Assembly (NCBI RefSeq): GCF_003018115.1
Contig: NZ_CP027457.1
Length of the DNA stretch: 64,000 nucleotides
Source: Escherichia coli
GTDB taxonomy: Bacteria > Pseudomonadota > Gammaproteobacteria > Enterobacterales > Enterobacteriaceae
Strand: one strand, 5' to 3'
Both the position numbers and the translations under genes were made by a program. Positions 60,734 through 61,322 of this stretch are shown here, in pieces. Every line of letters starts with the position of its first letter. Position 1 is the first letter of the stretch. The notes under the pieces were generated by a model. It was not told where the DNA came from, did not search any database, and saw only the letters and a program-made list of their open reading frames with translations.

Positions 60734-61285
60734 ATGACGACTCAAGTTACTGTCAAAAACCTTTCCCCTGTCACTTATAACCAGATTCCTGTAATCACAA
60801 CTGAGTTACTCGCCCGCCTTTACGGAACAGAAGCAATCCGTATACAGCAGAATCACCATGAAAATAAATCTCGATTTATTGAGGGAAAACACTTCTTTAA
60901 AGCTGTTGGTGATGAGCTCAAAAATTTGCGACTAGTTTTAAACGAGTCGCAAAATGAGGTGAAAATTTCTCCCAAAACCCGCACTCTCATCCTCTGGACA
61001 GAACGCGGAGCAGCCCGTCATGCAAAAATGCTCGAAACCGATCAGGCGTGGGAAGTATTCGAAAAACTCGAAGACAGTTACTTCAACCAGTACGAGAAAG
61101 AGCGGGCTATGGGAAAAATGAATATCGATTTTCATCTGGCGATCCGTGACGATAAAACCGCCTTCATCCGAAGTTATGCGCCTGGCCAGCTGGTGACGGT
61201 TGAAGAAGCCCTGGCTTTGCTTAAATCGCGCGGATGGCTGGTAATGCCACGAGATGAACTGGCCGGAAAATTAATGGAGCTTTAA
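60734..61285 (+). CDS. ORF6N/KilA-N-like domain phage protein (putative antirepressor-type regulator)
   Basis: 183-aa ORF; N-terminal NQIPVITTELLARLYG...FIEGKHFFKAVGDELKNL resembles ORF6N DNA-binding domain. Confidence 0.6.
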   Translation: MTTQVTVKNLSPVTYNQIPVITTELLARLYGTEAIRIQQNHHENKSRFIEGKHFFKAVGDELKNLRLVLNESQNEVKISPKTRTLILWTERGAARHAKMLETDQAWEVFEKLEDSYFNQYEKERAMGKMNIDFHLAIRDDKTAFIRSYAPGQLVTVEEALALLKSRGWLVMPRDELAGKLMEL

Positions 61286-61302
61286 CCGATTGAGTTAACC
61301 TT

Positions 61303-61322
61303 GATATGGGAATTCCCATATC
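61303..61322. repeat. 20-bp perfect palindrome gatatgggaattcccatatc
   Basis: perfect dyad directly downstream of the ORF6N gene, upstream of the hok locus. Confidence 0.6.

Follow-up and report, generated by a model that had tools for sequence, protein, structure and literature searches.

A probable RNA-controlled antirepressor cassette in an Escherichia coli prophage, and a palindrome shared with KilA-N genes

The gene and the RNAs that precede it

The stretch of DNA studied here (hereafter, the window) comprises 64,000 nucleotides of Escherichia coli contig NZ_CP027457.1 (assembly GCF_003018115.1), and our subject is a prophage gene of the antirepressor family (60734-61285), together with the region that precedes it and the perfect palindrome that follows it (61303-61322). 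All features are on the plus strand unless stated otherwise. The gene codes for a protein of 183 amino acids, made of an ORF6N domain plus a conserved C-terminal part, and its ATG lies 7 nt past a Shine-Dalgarno sequence GAGGG (60722-60726). RefSeq labels it 'ORF6N domain-containing protein' (WP_000211993.1), and the region upstream carries no annotation.

An initial annotation, made from the nucleotide sequence by a model, had proposed that the protein resembles antirepressors and has an ORF6N/KilA-N-like N-terminus. The first of these domains is present: ORF6N (Pfam PF10543) matches residues 12-99 over profile positions 3-86 of 86, with 73.4 bits against a cut-off of 27.8 (E 1.9e-20). The second is not, as neither KilA-N (PF04383) nor Bro-N is matched by the 183-aa protein at E<=1 in Pfam. 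The likeness to antirepressors is borne out over the full length (residues 1-183) by PHROG 2379 'anti-repressor' (E 1.1e-77), and the N-terminal 120-130 residues match eleven further PHROG families annotated as anti-repressor or transcriptional regulator. The protein has 4760 relatives in a large protein collection, and the architecture of about 180 amino acids is kept at 70-99% identity within Enterobacteriaceae (E. coli, Salmonella, Enterobacter and Cronobacter); residues 83-183 are nearly invariant, including the C-terminus ELAGKLMEL, and residues 30-80 are variable. A domain search had been suggested for the C-terminal part as well, and there it returned nothing: a PDB sequence search and an NCBIfam scan of the whole protein gave no match, and an AlphaFold2 model, built on a 12-sequence alignment, has pLDDT values of 70-89 in the ORF6N part and below 55 in the C-terminal 60 residues. 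From the family annotation and from the relative in the Salmonella prophage Gifsy-1 discussed below, the protein most likely inactivates a prophage repressor. A CI/DicA-like repressor of the prophage is encoded on the minus strand at about 56427-56834. We also observed that the last 35 or so codons of the gene (61180-61285) match, at 73.6% identity, unannotated stretches of several large E. coli plasmids (H63-H69).

Upstream of the gene, a terminator and about 160 bp of non-coding DNA had been described. The terminator is indeed there (60548-60570, a hairpin at 60548-60564 followed by a T-run, called by a terminator scan), 163 nt before the ATG; the DNA around it is not devoid of genes. An IsrK-like small RNA (sRNA; 60495-60569) is recognised by Rfam RF01394 with 51.2 bits against a gathering score of 50 (53-76 bits in homologues), and, since the terminator lies within this RNA, it is not the end of a preceding unit. 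Seven nucleotides before the start of the isrK model ends a sigma-70-type promoter-like site, presumably the IsrK promoter (60459-60488; -35 TTGACG, 18 nt, -10 TATATT, 10 of 12 matches), of which both hexamers are invariant in five diverged homologues and are also found in our loci L504-L514. Rfam RF03163 (c4-a1b1) gives 27.1 bits at 60482-60531, and scores at or near its gathering score in homologues. Past the terminator comes a C4-type antisense RNA (60595-60679), matched by Rfam RF01695 over model positions 1-87 of 87 with 69.4 bits against a gathering score of 45; the 54 nt between it and the ATG contain no open reading frame (ORF). An isrJ RNA was not found by the Rfam scan.

The same pair of isrK and C4 precedes the gene in E. 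coli UTME-13, phage PhiR5_2, the Stx2a-converting phage F765 and phage GER2. An upstream ORF of 14 codons ends 94 nt before the gene in the window; in seven other loci its counterparts have 14-36 codons in any frame, and an overlap with the antirepressor start codon was seen in none of the eight loci checked. The region from isrK to the gene thus keeps no reading frame, as expected if it is an RNA element.

Matched changes in loops and targets

In the predicted fold of the C4-type RNA, a segment b' (UUGGUUGAU, 60636-60644) is exposed in a hairpin loop and a segment a' (GUCUCAA, 60651-60657) lies in a single-stranded stretch. Segment a' is complementary over 7 nt to each of two sites TTGAGAC, one in the IsrK-like RNA (a1, 60517-60523) and the other in the leader of the antirepressor gene (a2, 60683-60689). 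Segment b' is complementary over 8 nt to a leader site b2 (ATCAACCA, 60714-60721), which abuts the Shine-Dalgarno sequence, and over 6 nt to a site b1 (TCAACC, 60533-60538) in the IsrK-like RNA.

These sequences change together. The a1/a2 sites read TTGAGAC in the window, where a' is GUCUCAA, TTGGAAC in UTME-13 (a' GUUCCAA), TTAGCAC in PhiR5_2 (GUGCUAA), TTCGAAC in F765 (GUUCGAA) and TTAGGAAC in GER2 (GUUCCUAA), and site b takes the forms ATCAACCA, TCGAAAC and GAAACCA in the alignment of these five loci; further loci have TTGGCGTC and TTAGCCTC as site a and GTAACCA and TCAAAACG as site b. Loop and targets are matched at all three places in all homologues examined, at least seven loci, which is strong evidence that this pairing is used and identifies its partners. 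The variants show the pattern of matched specificity of P1 and P7. Whole-molecule duplex energies of the C4-type RNA with the leader or with IsrK were not better than those of shuffled sequences, the program opening the stems, and the pairing was judged by loop-to-target complementarity and covariation instead.

Limits of the cassette

In related phages (e.g. L396, and many other loci) all this is missing: the sequence ...TTTGCCGCTGGGG is joined to ATAAAAACGGTTTGCGGG and runs straight into the hok promoter. Homology on the left stops at 60458 and on the right restarts at 61340, with GGGG at both junctions, so that the insert measures 881 bp (60459-61339). Its first inserted bases are the -35 hexamer and its right limit is 17 nt past the palindrome; in between it holds the promoter, the IsrK-like RNA, the C4-like RNA, the antirepressor gene and, as we argue below, a KilA-N-derived relic with the palindrome. 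An insert with its own promoter between genes that are adjacent in related phages has the appearance of a self-contained, moron-like cassette. The initial annotation had made the gene an independent transcription unit, and its autonomy stands; the terminator and the 160 bp or so that were to separate it from its surroundings are inside the unit, whose promoter precedes the terminator.

A lambdoid prophage of E. coli O26 RM10386 carries a locus with 99.9% identity to this one, and there the gene is located between the replication genes and hokD, upstream of a Q-type antiterminator. Just outside the cassette is a hok/sok (hokD) type I toxin-antitoxin locus (61388-61712), with the sok RNA (Rfam RF01794, 117 bits) at 61388-61562 and the hokD coding sequence at 61557-61712; its presumed promoter, read from the sequence, has the hexamers TTGCGG (61354-59) and TAGAAT (61376-81). 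In E. coli, hok/sok always adjoins the cassette.

Some further observations concern the surroundings of the insert. A RelE/ParE-type toxin and a helix-turn-helix antitoxin are encoded as a pair on the minus strand just past hok/sok (61815-62523), which makes two toxin-antitoxin systems near the antirepressor, and homologous cassettes in other phages also adjoin HigBA or ParDE pairs. On the left, a small ORF (60380-60461) codes for a membrane-like peptide (...VGVAMAVALVVYSICRWG) and ends in a stop codon that shares bases with the -35 hexamer of the cassette; in cassette-free phages the same small ORF leads directly into the hok promoter.

The palindrome and its copies elsewhere

As the initial annotation noted, a perfect 20-bp palindrome without spacer, GATATGGGAATTCCCATATC (61303-61322), follows 17 nt past the antirepressor stop codon, and the next bases, GGGAGAACAUUACC, contain no T-run. 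No other site within 3 mismatches of it exists in the window (0 expected), it is the sole perfect palindrome of at least 20 bp there (0.07 expected per shuffle), and it is again single-copy in 67 kb of the near-identical O26 prophage; a second copy in the prophage, which would have been looked for in a binding site, is therefore not present in either. It was taken to be a protein-binding site rather than a terminator. The terminator scan does not call it, and the hairpin lacks the U-tract of an intrinsic terminator. The binding site is not supported by its distribution: besides being single-copy, the palindrome is not at a promoter (it lies between the stop codon and the hok promoter) and is not kept with the gene in all homologues. 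It is 20/20 identical in some E. coli lineages, its left arm is deleted in UTME-13, which retains the antirepressor gene and hok, other hok-linked copies have one-base deletions or single-arm changes, and Salmonella homologues have no palindrome and carry a canonical intrinsic terminator about 20 nt past the stop codon. The arm loss in UTME-13 and the terminator in Salmonella indicate that the palindrome can be lost and does not serve the gene as an operator.

The exact 20-mer was found in viral contigs at at least 120 loci with completely different flanks, with G+C contents of 0.24-0.63 among the matches listed. Three contexts recur. In E. coli-type prophages it stands upstream of hok promoters, next to several different left-hand genes. 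In a nin-region module (L150 1670-1790, L035, L053 and about 20 others) a gene end ...AEDMAGFKLPDLV is followed by 12 nt, the palindrome, 10 nt, a strong intrinsic terminator and ninB. Finally, it occurs in frame inside ORFs, where it reads D-M-G-I-P-I-S, and the products of these ORFs have a KilA-N domain (Pfam E 4e-27). When every synonymous coding of DMGIPIS was searched for, nearly all matches were the palindrome or one-step central variants of it. The idea that a 20-mer in unrelated contexts might be a sequencing adaptor or linker was rejected, since complete E. coli genomes contain it and conserved genes carry it in frame.

The 17 nt between the stop codon and the palindrome (61286-61302) resemble, on the minus strand, the coding sequence (...ELIQS...) just 3' of the dyad of KilA-N genes, to which the window palindrome is identical: the reverse complement AAGGTTAACTCAATCGG, compared with GGAGTTAATTCAATCAT of KilA-N, agrees at 11 of 12 central positions, and the same flank is kept in other hok-upstream palindrome classes. 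No KilA-N gene is present in the window; in phages with an intact gene (L217), KilA-N adjoins hok and is divergently transcribed. Phages vB_EcoS-673R7 and PhiR5_2 have an intact KilA-N gene. The simplest reading of these comparisons would be that the window palindrome is the remnant of a KilA-N gene at a mosaic junction. We also considered a relic that reaches into the last antirepressor codons, and rejected it: ELAGKLMEL is invariant in homologues without palindrome, so that CTTTAA matches the KilA-N flank by coincidence.

All 21 distinct nin-module sequences of an unbiased sample have the palindrome, with single-arm decay in three and compensation in none, and L035 has two copies 500 bp apart; these data say little either way on function versus mutational upkeep. 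A BLAST search of the palindrome-terminator module against a phage collection gave no match, and a literature search on HK022 Roi gave no usable lead. As a separate observation, the C-terminal half of the palindrome-bearing E. coli KilA-N protein shares 32% identity with the ST313-td protein of the BTP1 prophage of Salmonella (LT714109.2 28130-28546).

Control of the antirepressor

That the gene and its control region belong to a known design, that of P1 immI and Gifsy-1 isrK-anrP, is well supported. In Gifsy-1 (Hershko-Shalev et al. 2016, PMC4825925) the isrK promoter is required for transcription of anrP, the terminator being leaky; the long transcript is translationally silent, the short IsrK activates anrP translation in trans, and AnrP turns on the antQ operon and the prophage. 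In P1, according to PMC8198154, the C4 antisense RNA pairs with a2/b2 and blocks expression of ant. We think it quite probable that the locus as a whole is an RNA-controlled antirepressor cassette of this type, of which the palindrome is a KilA-N relic outside the circuit, marking the 3' edge of the cassette.

The circuit would run as follows. Transcription would start at about 60495 from the promoter at 60459-60488, and most transcripts would end at the terminator (60548-60570), releasing a short IsrK-like sRNA with a1 and b1. Read-through transcripts would carry the C4-type RNA and the antirepressor mRNA, and the exposed a' and b' of C4 would pair with a2 and b2 in the leader. Since b2 abuts the Shine-Dalgarno sequence, this pairing would occlude the ribosome-binding site and block translation of the ORF6N antirepressor, a direction of regulation that we infer from P1. 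The IsrK-like RNA, which holds the same a and b sites and is thus able to compete for C4, would lift the block, by analogy with the Gifsy-1 experiments. The variable a and b sequences would give each phage its own specificity.

Several points weigh against this interpretation. The isrK score in the window is marginal, barely over its cut-off, and c4-a1b1 is under its gathering score in the window itself. Activation in Gifsy-1 depends on an upstream ORF of 45 codons with a stop that overlaps the start of anrP, where the window has the 14 codons ending 94 nt upstream; with such a short, non-overlapping ORF, the activation step cannot be identical to that of Gifsy-1. A Foldseek search of the AlphaFold2 model against the PDB found nothing at E<0.6 and only a vague winged-helix resemblance. 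As for the palindrome, the relic rests on a short flank, and E. coli lineages that retain 78-84% identity in the protein have the palindrome in the same place with 20/20 bases identical, against a difference of about 20% in its 63 flanking bases (nominal P about 0.01-0.02), which hints at some remaining constraint on it.

A different view of the control would be that antirepressor translation is switched on just as in Gifsy-1, IsrK opening an inactive long transcript in trans, and that the C4-like region is a part of the mRNA (the 'orf45' region) and not a processed antisense repressor. Gifsy-1 is the only close relative with experiments (PMC4825925), and the window shares with it, where the C4 region begins, a pair of in-frame ATGs spaced 12 nt apart. 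We nevertheless find this rather doubtful: in none of the eight loci does the upstream ORF, variable in length and frame, overlap the start codon, the match to the Rfam C4 model is full-length, and a stable RNA from the downstream region (STnc1160) is described by the Gifsy-1 authors themselves, who liken the system to CI/seqA/seqC of P4, with the CI RNA as a structural homologue (PMC4825925).

Another alternative, compatible with a KilA-N origin, gives the palindrome a present function as a 3' stem-loop which stabilises the mRNA end, or which partly stops or insulates transcription, so that read-through would leave the hok/sok promoter 32 nt downstream undisturbed. Its position 17 nt past the stop codon matches that of a transcript-end hairpin and is where Salmonella homologues have their terminator, the predicted RNA fold of 61283-61345 is stable (-23 kcal/mol, z -3.2), and the identity just mentioned, in three E. 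coli lineages with diverged flanks, would be explained. Against these arguments stand the missing U-tract and the silence of the terminator scan, the UTME-13 cassette that keeps ant and hok after losing the left arm, and the non-coding copies, which show single-arm decay only and no compensatory variants. We regard a working stem-loop as unlikely on balance; at most, the palindrome may form a 3' stem-loop of the antirepressor transcript.

The dyad of KilA-N genes

The KilA-N genes that bear the dyad (our loci L003-L376 and L516-L523; e.g. L217 1675-1694) led to an observation that we find more interesting than the cassette. KilA-N homologues were sampled regardless of the palindrome: 206 loci, which at the homologous codons have 60 different 32-mers and 36 different 20-mers. 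All eight arm pairs are intact in 15 of the 36 distinct 20-mers, with 13 different arm sequences, and most of the remaining ones lack one or two arm pairs. Examples of variants are GAAACGGGAATTCCCGTTTC (coding for E-T-G-I-P-V-S), GATACCGGAATTCCGGTATC (D-T..V-S), GATGTCGGAATTCCGACATC (D-V..T-S), GAAACGCGTATACGCGTTTC (E-T-R-I-R-V-S) and TCCATGGGAATTCCCATGGA (S-M..M-D). When a stem of ten pairs is considered, changes on both sides occur at 10 of 10 pairs; 88% of the cells are paired, versus 69% in shuffles and 33-47% with the register slid, and the covariation score of 0.46 (versus 0.14) was reached by none of 500 shuffles. The peptide changes are coupled (D-M..I-S, E-T..V-S, D-V..T-S, S-M..M-D, and G-I-P to R-I-R), and in this dyad the amino acids would appear to follow the nucleotides, and not the reverse. 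The centre GGAATTCC is kept in 40 of the 60 sequences, including genomes of 61-65% G+C; the self-complementarity of the 4-nt centre is not above chance expected from the codons N-A-T-H.

Distant KilA-N genes have a dyad as well. At the same codons, it reads CGATATCG, 6 nt, CGATATCG in the cyanophage PaV-LD and GCCGATATG, 8 nt, CATATCGGC in the Bacteroides phage LoVEphage. A spring-water podovirus has it too, as does a Nodularia phage, in which two pairs are wobbles and one is a mismatch. A clear dyad was not seen in Mcat20, HK544, a Klebsiella phage and D3 orf11. Rfam searches of the KilA-N loci and of the nin-region palindrome loci gave no family at the dyad, and no description of it turned up in literature searches on the palindrome string or on palindromes in connection with KilA-N. 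Wobble pairs on the sense strand (23 A:C versus 10 G:T) lean towards pairing of the antisense strand, a count that does not decide the matter and is not independent of phylogeny or codon choice. In the window itself, two overlapping perfect 18-bp palindromes, GGCAGGGGATCCCCTGCC and GCCGTTCATATGAACGGC, lie within a RecE-like exonuclease gene on the minus strand (52174-52206), and the first shares its centre GGGGATCCCC with one KilA-N dyad variant.

The covariation of the arms indicates either that they pair within a strand (of RNA or of single-stranded DNA) or that one arm is copied onto the other by some mechanism, and speaks against a fixed recognition sequence for a protein. The position kept across phyla, together with the conserved central octamer, argues for function. 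We therefore propose, tentatively and with a confidence that falls somewhat short of even, that the window palindrome is a displaced copy of an undescribed cis-element, a dyad with a stem of about 10 bp at a fixed codon position of KilA-N genes in phages of Proteobacteria, Bacteroides and cyanobacteria, which would act as a functional hairpin of RNA or single-stranded DNA (in regulation, processing or recombination) and of which copies would mark lambdoid mosaic junctions.

The dyad might instead be without function, in KilA-N genes as in the window, and be kept perfect by replication template switching within quasi-palindromes, in which one arm serves to rewrite the other and a change in an arm is either passed to both sides or removed. 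Such a process yields apparent compensation, including coupled changes (D..S to S..D, M..I to T..V), in the absence of any selection on structure, and would fit the decay and loss of the non-coding copies. Template-switch 'correction' of quasi-palindromes is established in E. coli, reportedly through the work of Ripley in 1982 and of Dutra and Lovett in 2006. It is more difficult to see why mutation alone should maintain a dyad at a single homologous codon position across the KilA-N genes of Proteobacteria, Bacteroides and cyanobacterial phages, why GGAATTCC should be kept against codon bias in G+C-rich genomes, and why the rest of the same genes has nothing similar, the paired fraction dropping from 88% to 33-47% once the register is slid. 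To template switching as the whole explanation we accordingly grant only a minor chance.

There remains the idea that the palindrome is a double-stranded DNA site for a dimeric protein, be it the ORF6N protein, the KilA-N protein of a co-resident phage or a host factor. The palindrome is perfect, spacer-less and without T-run, ORF6N and KilA-N are predicted DNA-binding domains (as Iyer, Koonin and Aravind are said to have proposed in 2002), the identical 20-mer recurs in many phages, also in non-coding places, and its centre resists a G+C content of 61-65%; with a single copy in the prophage, away from promoters and missing from some homologues, with no KilA-N gene in the window, and with arms that change compensatorily into at least 13 sequences, as fits base pairing and not a fixed recognition sequence, we consider this very improbable.

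Implications

The gap before a very common prophage gene of E. coli and Salmonella is thus not empty, and the gene would be part of a mobile, RNA-controlled antirepressor cassette. The many matched loop variants amount to a catalogue of heteroimmune specificities in prophages of pathogenic E. coli, Stx2a phages among them; switches of this kind matter for the induction of prophages and for cross-talk between them. As to the dyad, coding sequence appears to yield to a nucleic-acid structure across very distant KilA-N genes. A functional dyad would add a new conserved cis-element to a family of phage regulators that is widespread and little understood; a dyad upheld by nothing but template switching would be a clean case, in nature, of mutational drive shaping a protein sequence.

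Two other features of the window may be mentioned. A perfect 12-bp tandem repeat ACAGAGAATACA of 3.8 copies (58087-58132), coding for TENTTENTTENTTEN, lies in a replication-protein-like ORF of 339 amino acids (57580-58599), and looks like origin iterons inside an initiator gene, in the manner of lambda O. Chromosomal DNA makes up the left part of the window, with two rdlD antitoxin RNAs (ldr/rdl repeats), an RtT RNA and two tRNA genes (Rfam; 8560-8625, 9095-9160, 25291-25672).

Comparison with known systems

The closest known system is isrK-orf45-anrP of Gifsy-1, with which the window shares, in the same order, a promoter, an IsrK with leaky terminator, a conserved region of about 130 nt and an antirepressor-like gene; the window sequence matches the isrK family of Rfam, and the region from isrK to the gene is conserved as nucleotides and not as protein. 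It differs by the absence of the 45-codon ORF that overlaps the start (AUGA) and of a detectable isrJ, and by its location in the P-to-Q interval of an E. coli lambdoid prophage, beside hok/sok.

The immI operon of P1 and P7 (c4-icd-ant), reportedly described by Citron and Schuster in 1990, resembles the cassette in having a C4 RNA (RF01695) with two exposed segments, targets a1/b1 upstream and a2/b2 downstream, b2 being at a ribosome-binding site, and in the matched changes that would set phage specificity as in P1/P7 heteroimmunity. In P1, C4 is cut out of its precursor transcript by RNase P. However, the window has no icd, and b2 directly adjoins the Shine-Dalgarno sequence of the antirepressor gene itself, whose product is the 183-aa ORF6N protein and not P1 Ant1/Ant2; and the a1/b1 part would here be released as a separate, terminated sRNA. 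In the immunity system of P4 (CI RNA, seqA/seqC), a processed RNA also pairs with sites on both its sides in one transcript, as predicted here, but it acts by premature transcription termination of the replication genes, whereas the target in the window would be a ribosome-binding site.

The lambdoid 'morons', a notion said to go back to Juhala and colleagues in 2000 and to Hendrix, are likewise extra genes with their own promoter between genes that are adjacent in related phages. The cassette departs from them in its 3' end, which in E. coli has the palindrome and no canonical terminator (Salmonella relatives have one), and in its cargo, a regulator and not a gene for host fitness.

The KilA-N dyad is the only observation made here that fits no described family. 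Its nearest parallels are the ori iterons in gene O of lambda and the oriL of P1 in repL. It differs from both in being a single, hairpin-sized element with covarying arms, with no known binding protein, origin function or repetition, and it resembles them in being a DNA-level site within a coding sequence, to which the protein sequence bends to fit.

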